The notes beneath the pieces are model-generated. The model saw only the letters and a list, made by a program, of their open reading frames with translations, ran no database searches and was not told where the DNA came from. Of a stretch of 64,000 bases of DNA, positions 1 through 59,810 are shown in pieces (positions within the stretch are counted from its first letter, which is position 1; each line of letters starts with the position of its first letter). The position numbers and the translations under genes are program-made. The DNA comes from a virus (Duplodnaviria; Caudoviricetes): the IMG/VR virus record IMGVR_UViG_2747842453_000003, positions 32,001 through 96,000 of that record, one strand, 5' to 3'.

Positions 1-180
1 CATATCAAGCATTTCGCTCCATTGTTCAACAACTTCATCAATTTGTTCACGTTCCAATTCATCGGGCGAATCTACACCAAAGTGTTCCTGAATTAATCCA
101 AATGCCCATTCAGTAACTTCACCTTCTAACCAATCAAGCATTTTGTGTGGTCGATGAATTTCAAATTTATCTTCACTCAT
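1..180 (-). CDS. hypothetical protein, runs off the window edge (MSEDKFEIHRPHKMLDWLEG...)
   Basis: Open frame read manually from ATG at 180 to position 1; start overlaps the stop of the upstream gene. Confidence 0.6.
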   Translation of the reverse strand, partial: MSEDKFEIHRPHKMLDWLEGEVTEWAFGLIQEHFGVDSPDELEREQIDEVVEQWSEMLDM

Positions 181-44742: not shown

Positions 44743-46149
44743 TTAGTATTTCATATTATCATCAATAGGATGTACATCATTAGATATTAGAACGGCATTA
44801 ACTAATGTTCTTACACCAAATCCTACTGCCCCACCAGGAACAACATCATTGCCATCTTCTTTCCATGCCATACCAGCAATATCTAAGTGTGCCCAATTAC
44901 GATCATTATCTACAAAACGGTATAAAAACTCTGCTGCTGTAGTTGACCCACCACCTTTGCCGCCAATATTTTTCATATCTGCAATCTTTGAATCAATCAT
45001 TTTGTTCCAGTTTTTGCCCATTGGCATCCGCCAATACAATTCTCCTGCTAACTCGCCACTTTCGATAATCTCATTTCCGAACTCTGTAGAATTTGTAAAG
45101 AGTCCAGCCATTTCATTGCCCAATGATACAATAATAGCACCAGTTAGAGTTGCAAGATCGATAATACGATCTGGATCATATTCTCTTTGTACATATGTTA
45201 AAATATCTGCTAATACTAATCTACCTTCGGCATCTGTATTCAAGTTTTCAACTGTTTTGCCACTCAGTGATGTGACTACATCACCTGGCTTAATAGCATT
45301 GCCATCTGGCATATTTTCTACCAATCCAACAATTCCAACTACATTGGCTTGAATATTTTGAGAGGCAATTGCATGTAATGCTCCTACTACCGCAGCACTA
45401 CCACCCATATCAAATTTCATATCACCCATACCTGCACTTGGTTTAATAGAAATACCACCAGTATCAAATGTAACACCTTTGCCTACCAACGCAATTGGTC
45501 GTTCATCATCACCGCCATTCCATTCCATTACAACAACATATGAATCTTTTCGTGATCCCTGTCCTACACTTAGCAGCAAATCAAATCCCATTGTTTTTAA
45601 TTGTGCTTCATGGTATACTTTAACTGTTACACCCAATGGCATAAGCTCTGTACTAATGATATGTGCATAGGTTTCAGGATACAGAACATTACCCGGCTCT
45701 GATACAAGATCACGTGCAAATGAAACACTTTTATGTAGCGATACTTCTGTCACGGCATCGATATGAATCGCTAGTGTTTCTGTGTCTTTTTTAGATTTAT
45801 ATTTGTCAAACTTATACAATGCCAGTTGTGCACCTTCGTATATTGACTCATTAAAATCATTATTAATTTCAAAGTAAAGGTTATTAACTCGGCTTTTCCA
45901 TTGTTTCGTTAAACTACCACCAAAGTTACGCCAATCGTTTGTAGTCATTGCATCTGTTTTGATAACAACAATAGCATCTATGTTGATCTTAGGTGGAAAA
46001 GATAGCACAACTTCGCCAGTATCTTTTGAATCAAGTTTTTTAAGATTGCACACACTTGATATTGTTCCATTTAATTTTTTATCAATTGCCTTATATTCTT
46101 TTGAATCATATAATACTACTACTGCAGAATTTGGTTCATATGTACTCAT
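44743..46149 (-). CDS. pepA: leucyl aminopeptidase (M17)
   Basis: VGKGVTFDTGG, MKFDMGG, NTDAEGRL, DLATLTGA, HLDIAG. Confidence 0.95.
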   Translation of the reverse strand: MSTYEPNSAVVVLYDSKEYKAIDKKLNGTISSVCNLKKLDSKDTGEVVLSFPPKINIDAIVVIKTDAMTTNDWRNFGGSLTKQWKSRVNNLYFEINNDFNESIYEGAQLALYKFDKYKSKKDTETLAIHIDAVTEVSLHKSVSFARDLVSEPGNVLYPETYAHIISTELMPLGVTVKVYHEAQLKTMGFDLLLSVGQGSRKDSYVVVMEWNGGDDERPIALVGKGVTFDTGGISIKPSAGMGDMKFDMGGSAAVVGALHAIASQNIQANVVGIVGLVENMPDGNAIKPGDVVTSLSGKTVENLNTDAEGRLVLADILTYVQREYDPDRIIDLATLTGAIIVSLGNEMAGLFTNSTEFGNEIIESGELAGELYWRMPMGKNWNKMIDSKIADMKNIGGKGGGSTTAAEFLYRFVDNDRNWAHLDIAGMAWKEDGNDVVPGGAVGFGVRTLVNAVLISNDVHPIDDNMKY

Positions 46150-46589
46150 TAAATTAATCCTTTTTTATTTTTTAATTCTAGATGTGCTTGTGTATATTCT
46201 TCTTTAAAGTCAGGATGTTCAAAGTAATAACTCGCATTTTTACCATGCCTACATGCAAGTCTTACACTACCAGGGAATCCTTCAATATCATCTTTATGTC
46301 GTGGCATGAAATGTATATGAGGCCACATAACTGTTTGTCCTGCTGCTTCACCCATATTCATACCAAAATGATATCCATCAATCTTACCTTCATTTCTTAG
46401 ATTATCACCATATTCAACAGTTGCCTCTAATGCAAGTGTTATAAATTTAATATTATTTTGTCGAGGAACAAAAAGTAAATGTCCATCACATACTGGCCAT
46501 TTGTCTTCATATATAGTATAATAATATTCTTCATGTACTTTTAAGTGTTGTGATTTTTCAAATGGAGTATCTTCAAAGCGTTCAATCAT
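46149..46589 (-). CDS. HIT family hydrolase
   Basis: PVCDGHLLFVP, NMGEAAGQTVMWPHIH. Confidence 0.85.
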   Translation of the reverse strand: MIERFEDTPFEKSQHLKVHEEYYYTIYEDKWPVCDGHLLFVPRQNNIKFITLALEATVEYGDNLRNEGKIDGYHFGMNMGEAAGQTVMWPHIHFMPRHKDDIEGFPGSVRLACRHGKNASYYFEHPDFKEEYTQAHLELKNKKGLI

Positions 46590-47299
46590 GCCCAGACATC
46601 CAATATTGGCAATAAGTGTGAAACAACCACTGCTGATTTTTTTGAACTGTCATCAACAAAAGTATCAAAATCAGTGTGTGAGTTTTCTCCTGCAAGATCA
46701 CTTAATACTCGTACTACAATAAATGGTACATTGCATTGACAACAAGTTTGTGCAATCGCAGCACCTTCCATTTCTACCGCATCTGCATCAAACTGTTTGT
46801 GAAACATTTCTCTTGTTTGTGAACAACTAAGATATGTATCGCCAGTAATTATTGTTCCAAATTGTACATCTTTTCCCAAGTGTGATTTTATATAATCTCG
46901 CATTGGATCACTCATTTCAAATGATATGGAATCCGTTGTATCTTCAAGTGATGGGAAACTTCCTGGTAAACTAGAATACACTTCACCATCAACTATTGCA
47001 CCATAATCATGTTGAATCAGTTTGTCTGCAATTATGACATCCCCTATATTAAATTTGGGATTTAAGCCACCAGCGACTCCACTAAATATGATACTTTTAC
47101 AATCAAAATGTGATATTAGTATTGTTGATGTTATTGCCGCATTTACTTTTCCAATTCCACATTCAGCCGCAATAACATCAATATCATTAATTTTGCCTAT
47201 ATGAAATTCTTTTTTCATAACTGTTACAGTTGTGGGTGAATTGTCCCATTTAATTTTTGAATACTCTTCTGGAATAGCGGAAATCATTCCGACTGTCAT
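46586..47299 (-). CDS. mtnN: 5'-methylthioadenosine / S-adenosylhomocysteine nucleosidase
   Basis: GIGKVNAA, FSGVAGG, GDVII, QHD, AVEMEGAAIAQ, RVLSD. Confidence 0.92.
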   Translation of the reverse strand: MTVGMISAIPEEYSKIKWDNSPTTVTVMKKEFHIGKINDIDVIAAECGIGKVNAAITSTILISHFDCKSIIFSGVAGGLNPKFNIGDVIIADKLIQHDYGAIVDGEVYSSLPGSFPSLEDTTDSISFEMSDPMRDYIKSHLGKDVQFGTIITGDTYLSCSQTREMFHKQFDADAVEMEGAAIAQTCCQCNVPFIVVRVLSDLAGENSHTDFDTFVDDSSKKSAVVVSHLLPILDVWA

Positions 47300-47302
47300 T
47301 AA

Positions 47303-48037
47303 TTAATCCTCTTCAACATTATATTCTAGCATATAACTTATTGCCAGATGTCCTTGTATACTTCTATCTATGTTTTTATTATATACTATTACATCAGAAA
47401 TGTCAACATCTATATTACTTACTAACTTATCCAAATTTGATGGTGATTTGTCTGGTGCAAACCAAGTATTATATTCATCTAAATGCGATTCATAATTATA
47501 CTTTTGTAGAATAAATGAAGTAGTTTCATCTTGTGGTGATCCAGGAATAGTATGAAAGTCACCAGCAATAATAGTAGGTCTATCTTTATATAGATTTAAT
47601 AAAAACTCAATATCAGTCTTTCTATCTAAATCATTTATAAGTGTTGAATTAACGTCACTAGTATCTTGTGGATAACAAGGTAAAAACGTAATAATATTTA
47701 CACCGTCAAGTTGCGCTCTTAATGCAGTGCACCCTTGAGACTTATGATTTTCACCAATTTTTATCACCTTTTCATAAGATGGTAATGTAATACTTTTCAT
47801 CTTTGAAAATGGATGACCTGAATGATTTTTTCCCATTGCAACACATAAATTACCTACGCCAGGTGTAGATTCCAAAAAGAACAATCTGCAACCTATTATG
47901 GATTCTATCTCTTTTTTTGCTTCCATTGGTACACGTTGTAGTAGGAATACATCTACATCTTTGGCTGCATTGCGTAAATATTCTATTCCCCACTTCATGC
48001 CATCCATATTATATTGTAATACTCTAATACTAGGCAT
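47303..48037 (-). CDS. endonuclease/exonuclease/phosphatase-fold protein (divergent)
   Basis: VLQYN, DVFLLQ, IIAGDF, LDK, GHLAI. Confidence 0.65.
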   Translation of the reverse strand: MPSIRVLQYNMDGMKWGIEYLRNAAKDVDVFLLQRVPMEAKKEIESIIGCRLFFLESTPGVGNLCVAMGKNHSGHPFSKMKSITLPSYEKVIKIGENHKSQGCTALRAQLDGVNIITFLPCYPQDTSDVNSTLINDLDRKTDIEFLLNLYKDRPTIIAGDFHTIPGSPQDETTSFILQKYNYESHLDEYNTWFAPDKSPSNLDKLVSNIDVDISDVIVYNKNIDRSIQGHLAISYMLEYNVEED

Positions 48038-48041
48038 TAAA

Positions 48042-48356
48042 TTATTCCGCAGGTTCTATAGTGGTTACTAATGCAAGTCCATTGTTTCTAGATATACGGG
48101 TTGTTTCTTCTACTTTTTGTTCTGCAATTTCCATATAGTACATACCAACAATAGCATTTCCTTCTTGATGAATTTTAGATGCTATATCACTTGCAGTTTC
48201 TATTTCATGGTGAAATAACTTAACTAATACTTCAATTACAAAATCAAACGGTGTAGTATCATCATTATGCATCATAACGTAATATCTTTTAGGAGATTCT
48301 AATTCCAGTTCAGTATCTAACTTCTCTGAAATGATAATTTTTTCATCTGCTATCAT
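48042..48356 (-). CDS. clpS: Clp protease adaptor ClpS
   Basis: YYVMMHNDDTTPFDFVIEVL...IHQEG...EIAEQKV. Confidence 0.93.
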   Translation of the reverse strand: MIADEKIIISEKLDTELELESPKRYYVMMHNDDTTPFDFVIEVLVKLFHHEIETASDIASKIHQEGNAIVGMYYMEIAEQKVEETTRISRNNGLALVTTIEPAE

Positions 48357-48391
48357 TTGTTTGTTGATCCTATATTTTTAGTATATTTATT

Positions 48392-48422
48392 AAAAAGAGA
48401 GAAATATTTCTATTTCTCTCTT
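48392..48422 (-). terminator. intrinsic terminator after hsp20
   Basis: AAGAGAGAAATA/TATTTCTCTCTT followed by a T run. Confidence 0.7.
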
Positions 48423-48440
48423 AATATAATATCACAATTA

Positions 48441-48857
48441 TTATCTAATTGCAATAGTTTTCGGTTGTTTTTCTTCAGGAACTTTTCGTTCAAGAGATAC
48501 AAATAATAGTCCATCTTCCATGGTCGCATCAATTACTTCAACATAATCAGCAAGTTTCCATTCTCTGGTGAATGCACGATTTGCAATTCCACGATGAATA
48601 TATTCACGGCCTTCTTGTTCAATTTCAGGTTTTGAACCGGAAATAGTTAGTAGACCTTCTTTAACCGTGATTGCAATATCATCACGACTAAAACCTGCTA
48701 GTGCCAATGTAATTTGATATTTGTCTTCATCAATAGACTCTACATTATATGGTGGATAACCAGTGTTATCCAAACGATTAAAATCATTTAGTAGTCTATC
48801 AAAACCCAATACTGAGCGATGAAAATCTGGTAAGTTTAATGTTGTTACTCTTGTCAT
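48441..48857 (-). CDS. small heat-shock protein (IbpA/Hsp20)
   Basis: GFDRL, YPPYNV, LAGF, YIHRGIANRAF, DGLL; start reassigned to ATG 48857. Confidence 0.93.
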   Translation of the reverse strand: MTRVTTLNLPDFHRSVLGFDRLLNDFNRLDNTGYPPYNVESIDEDKYQITLALAGFSRDDIAITVKEGLLTISGSKPEIEQEGREYIHRGIANRAFTREWKLADYVEVIDATMEDGLLFVSLERKVPEEKQPKTIAIR

Positions 48858-48935
48858 TTTGTTTCTCCTTTTAATAAGCAAGATATGTTGGGTCCCTTAT
48901 GGCGACCCAAGTAAGGTAAACTTTTTACCCTACAG
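48855..48935 (-). promoter_or_regulatory. ROSE-like RNA thermometer in the hsp20 5' UTR
   Basis: Two upstream hairpins plus an SD hairpin UCUUGCUU/AAGGAGA with the UUGCU bulged-G motif. Confidence 0.75.
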
Positions 48936-48969
48936 TTATATTTAGTGATTTTTTTCCAAATGTCAAGTG

Positions 48970-49206
48970 TTATACACTTATTTTTTCAGAAAAAAGTATG
49001 ATATCTTTTGCTGGACCAACGTCACACGGTAATCCACCGTGTTCATTAATATAATATTTCAACACCGCCTTATACCATAGTTGGCTATTGTGGTGTGCTT
49101 GTTTGTTGAATTTTGCAATGCCACCAGAAGAACCATCCATTGTAAGTAACGCTCTGGATGATTCTTTCTGTAATGTTCTCAAATCTAGTGTATCTAAATC
49201 TATCAT
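48970..49206 (-). CDS. hypothetical protein
   Basis: 78 aa, coupled to rpsU. Confidence 0.65.
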   Translation of the reverse strand: MIDLDTLDLRTLQKESSRALLTMDGSSGGIAKFNKQAHHNSQLWYKAVLKYYINEHGGLPCDVGPAKDIILFSEKISV

Positions 49207-49457
49207 ATATTATCTTGTTGGCGTTTCATTTTTTGCCAACGCTTACGTCCTGCATCTTTTGCTTTACGTTTGATTTCACTTGGCTTTACGAATTCTTTTC
49301 GTGTTCTAATTTCTTGTACTAGTCCTTCTTCGGTGCATTTCTTTTTAAATCTACGAAACGCTTTTTCAAAGTTTCCATTTTTTACTTCAACTGTCATTCC
49401 AGACTTCGCATATCTGTCAGAGTCGTTTCCTTTTACATAGTGATTATTTTTAGTCAT
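49203..49457 (-). CDS. rpsU: ribosomal protein bS21
   Basis: VEVKNGNFEKAFRRFKKK...EIRTRKEFVKPSEIKRK. Confidence 0.9.
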   Translation of the reverse strand: MTKNNHYVKGNDSDRYAKSGMTVEVKNGNFEKAFRRFKKKCTEEGLVQEIRTRKEFVKPSEIKRKAKDAGRKRWQKMKRQQDNI

Positions 49458-49974
49458 TTTTTTGTATTAAACCTGTAATTCTATTGCCATTCAATTTTAG
49501 TGGCTGTTCATATTTCCAGTTGGCTAAACCATTAGAAATTGCTTCTACAAAAAATGTCAGAACATCGTGTGCTTTGGCATTTTCTCGGCCTTTCATTTGT
49601 ATAGTTATTTTAACTTTAGAACCATTATCAATAAACTTTTGTGCTTTACGCATTTTTATTTGTAAGTCATGAATACCGATTCCTGGTCTGAATTTAACTT
49701 CTTTAATTTCAACAGCATTTGCCCTAGCAGATTTCTCTTGAAATTTCTGACGTTTTTTCAGTTCGTAATTATATTTATTAAGACTAATTATTTTCGCTAC
49801 CGGCGGCATTGCATCTGGTACTATTAGTACCAAATCCAAGTTTGCAACACTAGCCATGTTCTGTGCAGCCTCATTAGACATTACACCCAGTGCTTCGCCA
49901 TCACTTCCTATAATTCGTAACTCAGTAACTGTTATTTGCTCATTATACTTAATTGCGGATTTGTTTCTATCCAT
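49450..49974 (-). CDS. infC: translation initiation factor IF-3
   Basis: NEQI, LDLVLI, PPVAKI, KEVKFRPGIGIHDL, KVKITI..KGRE. Confidence 0.92.
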   Translation of the reverse strand: MDRNKSAIKYNEQITVTELRIIGSDGEALGVMSNEAAQNMASVANLDLVLIVPDAMPPVAKIISLNKYNYELKKRQKFQEKSARANAVEIKEVKFRPGIGIHDLQIKMRKAQKFIDNGSKVKITIQMKGRENAKAHDVLTFFVEAISNGLANWKYEQPLKLNGNRITGLIQKND

Positions 49975-51231
49975 TTATGATTTTTGTTTAACCTTCGCTT
50001 CTTCATCGAACACTAATATAGGTTCTTCATTTCCCAAAATAAATGCATCTGTAATATGTACAGATGAAAGTCCTTGTTCAGTTGCCAATCTAGGTAACGT
50101 AAACTGCAATTTCAAAAGTGATTTCTCAATAACACTTCTTAAACCACGAGCACCAGTATCATCAGTTTTTGCTTTTTTTGCAATCTGCTCAAGTGCAGAT
50201 TCAGCAATATTTAACTCTACGCCATCCAACATGAAAAGTTTCTTAAACTGTGCGATAATACTATTCTTTGGCTCAGTTAACACTTGTATTAGTTGGCTCT
50301 CAGTAAGTGAATCTAGTCCAACAATAATAGGAAACCTACCCATAAACTCTGGAATAACACCGTACTTGATTAAATCTTTTGATTCAACTTGCTCACGTAT
50401 ATTTATCTTATTCAATGTTTTATCATATACTTTGGCACCAAAACCAATACCAGAGTTACTAGTAATTCTTCGTTCAATAACTTTGTCGATTCCTACAAAT
50501 GCACCACCAACAACAAACAAAATTTTACTTGTGTCAACTTCAATCATTTCACTACCAGGATGCTTTCTACCACCACTAGGCTGAACACGGACTTTTGTAC
50601 CTTCTACGATTTTAAGCAATGCTTGTTGAACACCTTCACCACTCACATCTTTTGTGATCGAAACATTTTCGCCTTTTTTGGCTTTTTTATCTATTTCATC
50701 AATATAGACAATACCGTATTCTGCTTTTTGCACATCAAAATCTGCTGCTATAAGCAATTTTTGTACTACATTCTCGACATCATCTCCGACATATCCGCTT
50801 TCAGTTAATGAAGTTGCATCAACTTGTGCAAATGGAACATCAAGAAATCGTGCGATTGTTTGAGCAAGCAATGTTTTGCCAGTGCCTGAGGGACCTAAAA
50901 TCATTACATTTGATTTATCCAACTCTACGCCATCTGAATCGTCAGAATTAATACGCTTATAATGATTATATACCGCAACACTTAATACTTCTTTGGCTTC
51001 GTCTTGGCCAATAACGTAAGAATCAAGATATTCTTTAATATCCTCAGGACAGGGAAGTGAACTAGTACCTTCAGTTATTTCTGCAAAATTTTCTTTTGAG
51101 TCATGGATTATTTCATAACACAAATCAATACATTCATTACAAATGAATTGATTCGGTCCAGCAATTAGTGTCTTAACAACATCTTTTTCTTTATTGCAAA
51201 ATGAACAAGTATAATCTTTAGTATCAGTCAA
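49975..51231 (-). CDS. clpX: ATP-dependent Clp protease ATPase ClpX
   Basis: CSFC/CNEC zinc domain, [32 protein letters not shown] loop, TGARGLR. Confidence 0.97.
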
Positions 51232-56110: not shown

Positions 56111-56144
56111 AATACTTTCCTCTTTGTCATAATACTTTCCTCTT
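56105..56144. repeat. 20-bp perfect tandem duplication of RBS plus start codon
   Basis: TGTCATAATACTTTCCTCTT x2. Confidence 0.9.
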
Positions 56145-57254
56145 TGGAATCTTTGAGTCCGCACTACTAACACAACTCTTACTTATACATGGCATTGGTT
56201 TGTCAAATAGTTTAAATCCACTTTCGATATATCCCAATGGCTGGTCTGCACAACTATAACTACGTTTTATACTACCGTCTGGTTCACGTATTATTATACC
56301 TTGATACCCACTGTTACAACTCCAGCCTTCAAAGTTATTAAAATTAAACGCATTGAAACGCTCGGCCTGATCCATATACCATTTCTTACCGTTTGAGTCT
56401 GTAAACTCTACTTGCATATGCCAAGGTACACTTTTATCATTTTGACCAATTGCATACTCTGGAACTTGAAAGTTGGGTTTTGGTCTATCATTCCATTTAC
56501 GTTTTACCTCAGTATACGCAAGTTGTGGCATACCATTCCACAATCTTTTCATCTGTTCTTCTGTATACCCATCAACTACACGACTTGCAGTGGGATCCGA
56601 TTGTGGCTTCAATGTTACATTAATACCTTGTTCATGAAAAAATAATGCATTATCCCAATCACGTTCAAACCAGTCCGGGACCATAACCATGTTCACTGTA
56701 ATTTGTACATCATTTTCTTGACACAATATAAGTTTATCTGCAAACTCTTGCATCTTATCTCTTGTATTAAGATGCTCAGTATGTAAACTAGCAGTGATAC
56801 TTGCACGATGAAATGGTTTAACTCGCTCTACATAATCCTCATGCCATTTAACATTACGTGACATATTAGTTGTCATATGGACACTTGTGTAGTTAGTATT
56901 TGATACATCATCTGCAAGATGACTCAAAATGTCCAAGTAGCCAGGATGGAAAGTAGGTTCTCCACCAGATAACGAGAAGTGAAAACTATTAAATCCGTTT
57001 TCACGTGCCTGTCTCTTTATTTCATCTATTGTCCGTAAACATAATTCTGTAGGACGATGGTCTTTACGGTCACTACGGGCATAAGGCCAACAGTAGGAGC
57101 ATTTGTAATTACAGAATCTTCCGAGGAGCCAACTAACAGTGAATAGATCACGATACAGCAAGGTACGCTGACCGACACTAACAATGTCATCAAAGGGTAT
57201 TTTAGTAAAGTCATAATTACTCCATTTTAAATCTTCGCTCATACCATTTCCCAT
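56127..57254 (-). CDS. radical SAM protein with Cys-rich C-terminus
   Basis: CNYKCSYC, SGGEPT, TN; C-terminal C...SYSC...PCISKSC. Confidence 0.9.
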   Translation of the reverse strand: MGNGMSEDLKWSNYDFTKIPFDDIVSVGQRTLLYRDLFTVSWLLGRFCNYKCSYCWPYARSDRKDHRPTELCLRTIDEIKRQARENGFNSFHFSLSGGEPTFHPGYLDILSHLADDVSNTNYTSVHMTTNMSRNVKWHEDYVERVKPFHRASITASLHTEHLNTRDKMQEFADKLILCQENDVQITVNMVMVPDWFERDWDNALFFHEQGINVTLKPQSDPTASRVVDGYTEEQMKRLWNGMPQLAYTEVKRKWNDRPKPNFQVPEYAIGQNDKSVPWHMQVEFTDSNGKKWYMDQAERFNAFNFNNFEGWSCNSGYQGIIIREPDGSIKRSYSCADQPLGYIESGFKLFDKPMPCISKSCVSSADSKIPKRKVL

Positions 57255-58126: not shown

Positions 58127-58160
58127 ATTGTTTTCCTTTGTGTTTATGTGTGTGTGTAGT

Positions 58161-58510
58161 GTAACTATTCTGTTGCTAGGTCAGTTACCAACCCCCACGT
58201 GCTTAAATTAAGCCGCTAATGCCATTTCTGGCGCATAATTTGCGTTTGCAATTATAAAGTTTGTTCGCGGTAACGGCGCTTACATCCCGGTAACTCCACT
58301 CTGCTATCCCGTCAGTCGATCCTTGTTCTACCCCATCAAAAACACTTCTAATAAACTGCCAAATAATATAATTACCAAACCATATTGCGCAAATCTTAAC
58401 AACAAATATGTAATTATATCACTCATTTCATTCTCCAAGTGTTTATGGTGGAGTAGCCCGGTACTGCCCCGGGGTCCTGTCCGTATTCACTTCACTTCAA
58501 CGTTACATTC
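58161..58510 (-). ncRNA. ssrA: circularly permuted (two-piece) tmRNA, alphaproteobacterial type; tag ANANYAPEMALAA at 58208-58249
   Basis: Acceptor piece ends CCCGG-GGCAGTA-CCGGG-CTACTCC-A-CCA at 58446; coding piece starts GGGGTAG at 58334 (G3-U wobble); outer ends approximate. Confidence 0.93.
58328..58426 (-). CDS. 32-aa hydrophobic peptide in the tmRNA intervening segment
   Basis: GGAG-6nt-ATG; MSDIITYLLLRFAQYGLVIILFGSLLEVFLMG*; TAG inside the acceptor stem. Confidence 0.55.
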   Translation of the reverse strand: MSDIITYLLLRFAQYGLVIILFGSLLEVFLMG

Positions 58511-58541
58511 TATTTATAACATATTTTAATGATAATGTCAA
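58511..58541 (-). promoter_or_regulatory. tmRNA promoter (sigma70 with overlapping late-type element)
   Basis: TTGACA-17nt-TATAAATA. Confidence 0.8.
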
Positions 58542-59110
58542 GTATTGAATTTATTATTAATAATTTCAATCACCCTGTCAGATAGAACTATCTCATAATG
58601 ATTCCTATCTACTTCTGCATATTCTATATCATCGCGGCAAGTCATACTTTTACGTGTGACAATACCATCGTTCTCACCTGATATCCATGGTACATCGCCT
58701 ACAGTTGTAACCACCTGCATCCAAGGACATTCAATATCAATCTTACGACTGTATCTTATAAACTCACTGTTTGGCGAAATGTCTTTGAACAATTGATAAT
58801 GTGGATTAAAGACTGTTCCCCATGATGCTATTTCGCTGCCATTAAAAGGTGTTGCTAAACTAACAACATTCTTTATTGTATCAAATTCACTTTGTAAATA
58901 AGTTGCATATACACCACCAAGACTATGTGCTATTACAAAAAAATCATCATCTATATCATTTAAAGTTTTCATCATTACAGCAAGATTATCAACTGCTGCG
59001 GTATGTTTACTATAATTTAAATATATAGGATCTTTACAATCCAACGATTTCTGAATGAAGGCGAAACTTCGTTCACTTGCAGTTGCCCCATGTATATACA
59101 CTATTCTCAT
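58538..59110 (-). CDS. alpha/beta hydrolase
   Basis: YIHGA, AHSLGG, LATPFNGS, NDGIV, NHYE. Confidence 0.88.
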   Translation of the reverse strand: MRIVYIHGATASERSFAFIQKSLDCKDPIYLNYSKHTAAVDNLAVMMKTLNDIDDDFFVIAHSLGGVYATYLQSEFDTIKNVVSLATPFNGSEIASWGTVFNPHYQLFKDISPNSEFIRYSRKIDIECPWMQVVTTVGDVPWISGENDGIVTRKSMTCRDDIEYAEVDRNHYEIVLSDRVIEIINNKFNT

Positions 59111-59114
59111 TCAT

Positions 59115-59810
59115 TTAAGTCCTGACGCTGTTATGCTTACGATCCATAAACATCTTTGCTGTTTCAACTGCTACAGCAGCATCTCTACAATAAGCATCTG
59201 CGCCAATTGCTTTTCCAAATTCTTCATTCAATGGTGCGCCACCTACTAGTATAGTATAATCATCACGTATACCTTTTTCAGTCATTACATCAATTACAAC
59301 CTTCATATATGGCATAGTTGTTGTCAGTAGTGCAGACATTCCTAAAATATCTGGATTATGTTCTTCAATCGCTTCTAGATATGCTTCTACTGAATTATTA
59401 ATACCAATATCGTGTACATCAAATCCAGCACCTTCCATCATCATACCAACTAGATTTTTACCAATATCATGTATGTCACCTTTTACTGTACCAATCACCA
59501 TCGTTCCAACTTGTGGTGCACCAGTCTCAGCAAGTAGTGGTTTGAGAATTGACATACCACCTTTCATTGCATTTGCTGCCAGTAATACTTCTGGCACAAA
59601 TAATATACCATCACGGAAGTCTATGCCCACAATGGTCATTCCAGCAACTAATGATTCTGTCAATACACGGTATGGTTCCCAACCACGTTCTAAAAGAATA
59701 TTAGTACCTTCTTCAACTTCCTCTTTGAGACCATCATACAAATCGTCTCCCATTTGAATTACAAGTTCATCATCAGATAACTCTGATAATACAATATCAT
59801 CATCTTCCAT
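59115..59810 (-). CDS. B12-binding corrinoid protein (cap plus Rossmann domains; MetH/MtbC-like)
   Basis: FVPEVLLAANAM, GTVKGDIHDIGKNLV, MSALLTTTM, VGGAP. Confidence 0.92.
   Translation of the reverse strand: MEDDDIVLSELSDDELVIQMGDDLYDGLKEEVEEGTNILLERGWEPYRVLTESLVAGMTIVGIDFRDGILFVPEVLLAANAMKGGMSILKPLLAETGAPQVGTMVIGTVKGDIHDIGKNLVGMMMEGAGFDVHDIGINNSVEAYLEAIEEHNPDILGMSALLTTTMPYMKVVIDVMTEKGIRDDYTILVGGAPLNEEFGKAIGADAYCRDAAVAVETAKMFMDRKHNSVRT

Follow-up and report, generated by a model that had tools for sequence, protein, structure and literature searches.

The virus record IMGVR_UViG_2747842453_000003 of IMG/VR contains a permuted transfer-messenger RNA (tmRNA) gene within the stretch of 64 kb that was analysed here (the window). 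The two pieces of this gene are separated by an intervening segment (IVS), and nearly the whole IVS is occupied by a small open reading frame (ORF). Our comparison of related loci suggests that the excised spacer probably doubles as the messenger for a real membrane peptide of 32 residues. The stop codon of the peptide gene lies beyond G1, the first nucleotide of the coding piece of the tmRNA, and this position is best understood as a by-product of packing a gene into a confined slot. The full record comprises 146 kb. Since CheckV rates this length at only ~40% completeness, its source is an uncultured marine jumbo phage; all related contigs are of marine origin as well. Unless stated otherwise, positions refer to the window and features lie on its minus strand.

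The tmRNA gene and its intervening segment

A permuted tmRNA with the tag ANANYAPEMALAA was called by ARAGORN at 58538-58117, and two Rfam families matched above their gathering thresholds, RF01849 with 115.3 bits (cut-off 50) and RF04321 with 101.8 bits (cut-off 47). The gene order is that of permuted tmRNA genes: an acceptor piece with an encoded CCA is followed by the IVS and by the coding piece, which starts from G1. The promoter (58513..58541) consists of a -35 element TTGACA (58541-58536), a spacer of 17 nt and a -10 element TATAAA (58518-58513). The promoter reaches into the 3' end of an upstream 190-aa gene, and the pattern TTGACA-N17-TATAAA is common to all related loci compared. The acceptor piece (58446..58506, with the start taken from the RF04321 match) comprises the 3' half of the tRNA-like domain including the T arm, the acceptor-stem strand CTACTCC (58456-58450), the discriminator A (58449) and the CCA (58448-58446). 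The 5' strand of the acceptor stem, GGGGTAG (58328..58334, with G1 at 58334), opens the coding piece (58158..58334), in which the tag frame runs from GCA at 58249 to TAA at 58210-58208. Both strands form an acceptor stem of 7 bp with a G3-U pair between G58332 and U58452. The tag is followed directly by the stop codon and has the hydrophobic degron ending of the ALAA type that characterizes permuted tmRNAs. In comparison to the nearest relative, locus L002, the T stem and the acceptor stem show compensatory changes. Based on the Rfam scores, the tag called by ARAGORN and these compensatory changes, the gene is judged to be an intact, functional permuted (two-piece) tmRNA gene of the alpha type. 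A search for SmpB (PF01668) gave no match in the 146-kb record, itself ~40% complete, and the SmpB of the host is presumably used.

The IVS (58335..58445) spans 111 nt between the CCA end at 58446 and G1 at 58334 and would be removed on maturation. Precursors of two-piece tmRNAs are cleaved by tRNA-processing enzymes (PMC11915505). From the tmRNA family we infer that the precursor is cut at G1 and after the CCA into two base-paired pieces, with RNase P expected to cut 5' of G1, the accepted site in tmRNAs. The ends of the IVS form a closing stem of 8 bp between AAACACTT (58437..58444) and AAGTGTTT (58340..58347), a helix that extends the acceptor stem. This closing stem covaries: over 60 distinct IVS end pairs, cognate ends paired with -12.9 kcal/mol and non-cognate ends with -6.6 kcal/mol (Mann-Whitney p = 1e-25). 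The complete IVS folds more stably than its shuffles (z = -5.1) and includes an inner hairpin at 58361..58424 (arms 58424-58410 and 58375-58361) that lies inside the ORF.

A Shine-Dalgarno (SD) motif, GGAG (58433..58436), directly follows the 5' strand of the closing stem at a distance of 6 nt from the ATG and is unpaired in the predicted fold. The peptide gene (58328..58426) starts with ATG at 58426, has 32 codons and ends with TAG at 58330-58328. The 3' strand of the closing stem also codes for residues 27-30. The ORF ends with the 7 nt GGGGTAG, which also form the 5' strand of the acceptor stem and contain the last Gly codon together with the stop codon. An earlier reading of this DNA from its letters (the original prediction) had described the permuted tmRNA, the 111-nt segment with its 8-bp stem, the GGAG, the ATG and the 32-codon ORF, and all of its coordinates hold; its observation that the ORF terminates within the acceptor stem was likewise borne out for the window.

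The encoded peptide and its homologues

Taken by itself, the ORF in the window is only suggestive of a gene. An ORF at least as long as the maximal one of 36 codons, which contains the 32-codon gene, was obtained in 4.4% of dinucleotide shuffles of the IVS (p ~0.04), and such an ORF plus an SD-like motif in ~1%. The product is predicted to be a small single-pass membrane peptide, with a GRAVY of 1.55 and a value of 1.94 for the best 19-residue window; all members of the family described below are hydrophobic as well (GRAVY 1.3-1.7; 19-residue window 1.9-2.4). Hydrophobicity alone is weak evidence, because T-rich sequence encodes hydrophobic residues by default. A search of the ESM Atlas with the peptide gave no informative match. 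On these data, the IVS might also be regarded as a structured processing spacer with an untranslated ORF, any conservation of which would result from RNA structure or recent common descent. The stable fold, the covarying closing stem and the shuffle statistics agree with such a spacer, as does the fact that many other IVSs lack an ORF and consist of structured RNA, in some cases with tRNA-like T arms. It is the comparative data that lift the ORF above chance.

Homologues of the window peptide surfaced through protein searches only. The locus had no blastn match in 50,697 GenBank phage records, an exact 26-mer of the insert was found in IMG/VR only in its own record, and the insert was absent from ~170 related tmRNA loci, which had been gathered via flanking proteins and a conserved pseudoknot pattern. 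In a phmmer search of 1.84 billion representatives, the 32-residue peptide gave four matches (E 8e-8 to 1e-5), and four further homologues were recovered from 5.8 billion proteins with a profile built on an alignment that has a 56-aa member as its first sequence. The eight homologues share 66-84% amino acid identity with the window peptide, which makes a family of nine members. Seven of them reside in an IVS, and the phage tmRNAs around them are otherwise diverged; one, at locus L287, is free-standing. For six the location in an IVS is evident from DNA (L280, L283, L284, L292, L294 and L295); the tmRNAs of these six differ in acceptor stem, body and tag, with tags including ANDNYAPEMALAA and ANENFALAA. 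The seventh, P0084, is available as a protein without DNA, and its N-terminal extension, a read-through of the tmRNA, points to an IVS location too. Four proteins (P0080, P0082, P0085 and P0086) are annotated with N-terminal extensions that correspond to the acceptor piece read in frame. Annotation pipelines thus either miss such genes or add tmRNA-derived extensions to them.

Eight copies with DNA were available for a codon alignment, namely the window, the six IVS homologues and L287; without L287 there are seven IVS copies. The ATG is present and the frame is open in 8/8 copies, with no indel across 31 codons, and the leader contains one. Each of the seven IVS copies has an SD-like motif (GGAG, GAGG or GGGA) in the corresponding position. 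In L294, a TAA between an upstream TTG and the ATG fixes the latter as the start. For four phylogenetically independent pairs, the Nei-Gojobori method yielded Sd 30.2 for S 75.9 and Nd 24.8 for N 248, a pN/pS of 0.25 (Fisher p = 2.8e-8), and the amino acid replacements are conservative (I/V, L/F/M, S/A). When the observed substitutions were placed at random, the frame survived with a probability of 0.12-0.46 per homologue; the product of 1.6e-5 is a lower bound on p, as the lineages are not independent. The distribution of variable columns over the codon positions (17, 9 and 20) is by itself not significant. Comparative evidence therefore supports the ORF as a real, conserved and selected peptide gene, as the original prediction had supposed. 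Of the features for which it had proposed a conservation check, the SD motif, the frame and the hydrophobicity are maintained across the homologues; the TAG in the acceptor stem occurs in the window only.

The free-standing family member

At L287:1501-1596, a member of the family stands outside any tmRNA. This copy has its own TAG, and a TAATG overlap couples its translation to that of the gene before it. A distance of 24 nt separates its end from the promoter of a tmRNA gene, the IVS of which carries an unrelated ORF of 41 codons (L287:1713-1862). The L287 copy is decisive for the reality of the gene, as far as this can be read from genomes: the gene occurs outside the RNA context. Its last codons still resemble the junction of closing stem and G1, and pairwise differences group it with the IVS copies of L294, L284 and L283. 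The free-standing gene therefore most likely descends from an IVS copy.

With this copy, the reading as a mere RNA spacer was rejected and is now very improbable. It does not explain an intact frame in 8/8 copies at dS values up to above 1 together with a pN/pS of 0.25, the conserved ATG and SD motif, or a copy that keeps the frame without any tmRNA around it. The inner hairpin is only loosely kept in the homologues, with broken pairs and zero double compensations. In the comparison of the peptide family, true covariation was confined to the acceptor stem.

Exchange of the intervening segment and its other cargo

The related loci contain 69 distinct IVSs of 25-264 nt. Only both ends of these are conserved, and their interiors are mutually unrelated. 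The IVS of the nearest relative L002 measures 30 nt and has no ORF; the peptide ORF is therefore dispensable for tmRNA maturation. The last 127 nt of the window tmRNA (58284-58158) show 100% identity to L002, as do the 382 nt that follow them and the downstream gene. At the start of the coding piece, 49/50 positions agree with L117. The IVS is identical to that of L292 in 103/111 positions, and the tmRNA body of L292 is only ~35-70% alike. In these alignments the window tmRNA gene (58158-58545) is a three-part mosaic of L002, L117 and L292, which implies recombination breakpoints inside the tmRNA gene and identifies the IVS as an exchangeable cassette closed by a stem.

Elsewhere this slot is empty or filled with structured RNA or with unrelated small genes. 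Besides the peptide of the window, five further types of ORFs led by an SD motif were encountered: a 31-aa membrane peptide (L134), a 36-aa basic CxxC peptide (L100, L251), a 41-aa soluble protein (L167, L168), a basic protein with a core of ~45 aa (L182) and a 77-aa membrane protein (L116, L192; shuffle p <= 0.001). No resemblance was found between any two of these six families. The likeness of the window peptide to the 31-aa peptide of L134 had been considered and was not significant (shuffle p = 0.18). At least two of the other families, the 77-aa protein and the basic protein, are independently confirmed as real genes by their relatives. The 77-aa protein of L192 has homologues down to ~48% identity that are ordinary genes of phage operons without a tmRNA nearby, and in L269 free-standing homologues are placed between radical SAM genes. 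The basic protein of L182 has 51 relatives and a match to phrog_16066, and it occupies the IVS of a very different tmRNA, the tag of which is ANNNFAPTAYALAA.

Two observations on the other IVSs may be added. A variant of the CxxC family at L251:4625-4732 differs from L179 and L100 by a change of the ATG to TTG, the rest of the IVS being identical. Several ORF-less IVSs, those of L004 (IVS ~2724-2804), L005/L006, L197 and L263, contain T-arm-like motifs adjoining the closing stem, GGTTCGATTCC or GGTTCAAATCC flanked by 4-5 bp, which might represent inserts that are degenerate or resemble tRNAs; the literature contains one case of an intact tRNA-Ala within an IVS (PMC11915505).

The position of the stop codon

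In all seven IVS copies with DNA the frame passes G1. The predicted cut at G1 leaves 30 whole codons plus 2 nt of the window gene and no stop codon. The premise of the original prediction, that maturation would remove the stop codon, is thus conserved in sequence. Also its argument that a ribosome reaching the stop must open the acceptor stem follows from the geometry of the locus, and the same holds for the closing stem. The exact position of the stop is not conserved: in the window it occupies +5..7, inside the acceptor stem, and in the other copies +13..15 (GGGGNNGAANTAG). Accordingly, no residue follows Gly32 in the window, and LK, LN, AN or SK follow beyond G1 in the others. An acceptor-stem strand GGGGTAG is also combined with the unrelated, ORF-less IVSs of L101, L117 and L232, so that the TAG in the stem is not tied to the ORF.

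From this geometry a selected switch had been proposed. The released spacer would be a non-stop message, its product would be tagged by the very tmRNA from which the spacer was cut, and the tagged peptide would be destroyed; free membrane peptide would appear only from unprocessed precursor or when the capacity of processing, trans-translation or ClpX is saturated. An end of 30 codons plus 2 nt is a textbook non-stop end, and this end, the frame that passes G1 in all seven IVS copies with DNA, the ClpX and ClpS encoded nearby by the phage and the precedent of arfA, a message made non-stop by RNase cleavage (PMC3989581), agree with such a switch. The non-stop feedback mechanism is physically plausible. 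As a selected function, however, it is not supported. The free-standing copy in L287 has its own stop codon, so a missing stop before the RNase site is not a property of the whole family, and only two of the six slot families pass G1. Where the stop falls, and which C-terminal residues are encoded beyond G1, depends on the acceptor stem, and so on the RNA and not on the peptide; the TAG in the stem is confined to the window, its GGGGTAG strand is shared with IVSs that carry no ORF, and the nearest relative L002 lacks the ORF altogether. Searches of Pfam and PHROG (E <= 0.1) revealed no ArfA-like, rescue-factor or toxin family, and no antisense promoter was seen in the IVS in a weak consensus scan. 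A self-contained feedback or toxin-like switch as selected function, which the original prediction had put forward, is therefore considered unlikely.

The stop codons of the six slot families fall into three places: in the closing stem (L116, L167), as a TGA 1 nt before G1 (L100, L134) or beyond G1 (window, L182). This approximately equal split fits a tight packing of genes with stop codons supplied by the scaffold in three frames. We thus favour the explanation that the stop beyond G1 is not a selected sensor and would arise from fitting a gene of ~31-34 codons into a stem-closed slot of ~111 nt. The cassette would be swapped between phage tmRNA genes by recombination in its conserved flanks, which are the end of the acceptor piece with the closing stem on one side and the closing stem with the G1 region on the other. 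The strong tmRNA promoter would yield one precursor transcript. Ribosomes would bind to the accessible GGAG upon its emergence and produce the peptide while the precursor is still unprocessed and probably still being transcribed, and termination would occur at the stop codon supplied by the tmRNA scaffold. A ribosome on the last codons would block the closing and acceptor stems, which would render translation and processing by RNase P mutually exclusive for each molecule. After the cut at G1, the released spacer would have no stop codon, and a ribosome still present on it would be a non-stop complex for trans-translation. Translation from the precursor, the RNase P cut and this fate of the excised piece are what we infer from the gene arrangement.

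The same arrangement might suggest that the act of translation matters more than its product, in that a ribosome would delay closure of the closing and acceptor stems and thereby time or chaperone the folding and processing of the tmRNA pieces. The SD motif placed directly behind the 5' strand of the closing stem is compatible with this role, and so are the ORFs of all six families, which end in or beyond the 3' strand, so that each translation event opens the stem although the ORFs are unrelated and share nothing but the position. Conservation at the level of amino acids with conservative replacements, and the existence of a free-standing copy, are not expected under such a role. Moreover, most IVSs of this tmRNA family are ORF-less and presumably processed normally. 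Little probability is therefore left for this explanation.

Several observations weigh against the peptide gene with a stop position of no function. The family is small, with nine members, and the dN/dS signal of a control in frame +1 was also low (0.45 vs 0.38, all pairs). For these two reasons, the case rests on the open frame, the conserved start and SD motif, the lack of indels and the free-standing copy. The peptide had no match in Pfam or PHROG at E <= 0.1. In the basic-protein family, 7/7 sampled members reach the RNase P site with the frame still open. In six of them the frame passes G1; the seventh, P0078 (L296:66-305), is located 5' of a tRNA-Gly (225-300), has a core ending in ...KRGYNKRLRK and no own stop, and reads into the tRNA-Gly. 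This family, which is unrelated to the window peptide, ends at an RNase P site in two contexts, the G1 of a tmRNA and the 5' end of a tRNA-Gly. There could after all be selection for such an end, as the IVS copies of both families lack a stop before G1. Because the basic-protein family always ends there, the non-stop switch is kept as a minority reading. It would amount to a self-referential circuit in which the tagged peptide is removed by the phage ClpX or by host proteases, with the same logic for the basic-protein family; such a circuit appears doubtful.

Genomic context

A cluster of host-like genes for translation and proteolysis is encoded at 44743-51231. According to Pfam, it comprises a PepA-type M17 aminopeptidase, a HIT protein, ClpS, Hsp20, IF3 and a ClpX with zinc finger. 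The genes for ClpX, ClpS, IF3, Hsp20 and PepA are located 7-13 kb from the tmRNA gene on the same strand, and ClpP was not seen in the 146-kb record (~40% complete). The peptide may be linked to this set of tmRNA, ClpX and ClpS. The immediate flanks of the tmRNA gene (56127-57254 and 59115-59810) contain a radical-SAM-like 375-aa gene, an APS-kinase-like P-loop gene and a two-domain B12-binding protein. At the related locus L284, a tRNA-Ile(TAT) was called directly upstream of the peptide-bearing tmRNA (L284:1341-1431). Its length of 91 nt is unusual and may reflect a long variable region or an insert.

Relation to known systems

The IVSs of tmRNAs are usually treated as throw-away spacers. 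The present locus suggests that abundant marine phages also use them as exchangeable slots for the expression of small genes, and one transcript must then act as messenger and as precursor of a stable RNA. It further offers a natural, testable case in which cleavage by RNase P should create a non-stop message beside the machinery that handles non-stop messages. Transcripts that combine a functional RNA with the message for a small peptide are known from SgrS/SgrT, RNAIII/hld and SR1/SR1P. In these dual-function RNAs the mature RNA itself is translated, whereas the coding part here consists of the discarded spacer and the first 7-15 nt of the mature RNA. With type I toxin-antitoxin systems the locus shares a small hydrophobic peptide. 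An antitoxin promoter was not apparent: the consensus scan found no plus-strand site within 58328-58446 and placed plus-strand sites only at 58529-58564, but this consensus scan is weak. It needs a T at position 6 of the -10 element and for that reason missed the tmRNA promoter with its TATAAA.

Two-piece tmRNAs are known in marine myophages, namely the OM43 phage Melnitz and pelagimyophages (PMC9004378). Their tmRNAs share with that of the window the order of the pieces, the marine phage background, an early-type sigma-70 promoter, an alpha-like tag of the ALAA type and the lack of a detected phage smpB. The study covers the tmRNA together with a glutamine riboswitch and describes no protein gene in the IVS (PMC9004378), in contrast to the IVS of the window, which would be the messenger for a conserved peptide. 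The expanded tmRNA database likewise documents cargo in the non-mature part of tmRNA genes: besides the intact tRNA-Ala gene in one IVS, a repetitive element was found in another, and intron-form tmRNA genes carry homing-endonuclease genes in group I introns (PMC11915505). It reports no SD-led protein gene in a permuted IVS, and the window carries as its cargo a small peptide gene of cellular type rather than a gene for mobility. Full-text literature searches yielded no paper on a protein gene in the IVS of a tmRNA. An ORF in the excised spacer of a stable RNA and a dual-function transcript are thus known in kind, and the peptide gene in a tmRNA IVS is apparently unpublished.

In Escherichia coli, the stop codon of arfA is removed by RNase cleavage, and the product reports trans-translation capacity (PMC3989581). 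The window locus would resemble arfA only if the switch model were right. ArfA is a rescue factor, and its message is cut by RNase III in a hairpin of its own, whereas the window peptide is unrelated, is predicted to reside in the membrane and has a relative in L287 with its own stop codon. The closest published analogue that was confirmed is the IVS in helix 45 of the 23S rRNA of Coxiella burnetii, a segment of 428 nt with an S23p ORF, the protein of which is reported as apparently not made in vivo (PMC4990558). In both systems an ORF lies in a stem-closed spacer that is excised from the precursor of a stable RNA, and the spacer behaves as an optional mobile insert. The Coxiella IVS is cut by a different route, and the ORF of the window is distinguished by its SD motif, by purifying selection and by its overlap with the mature RNA.

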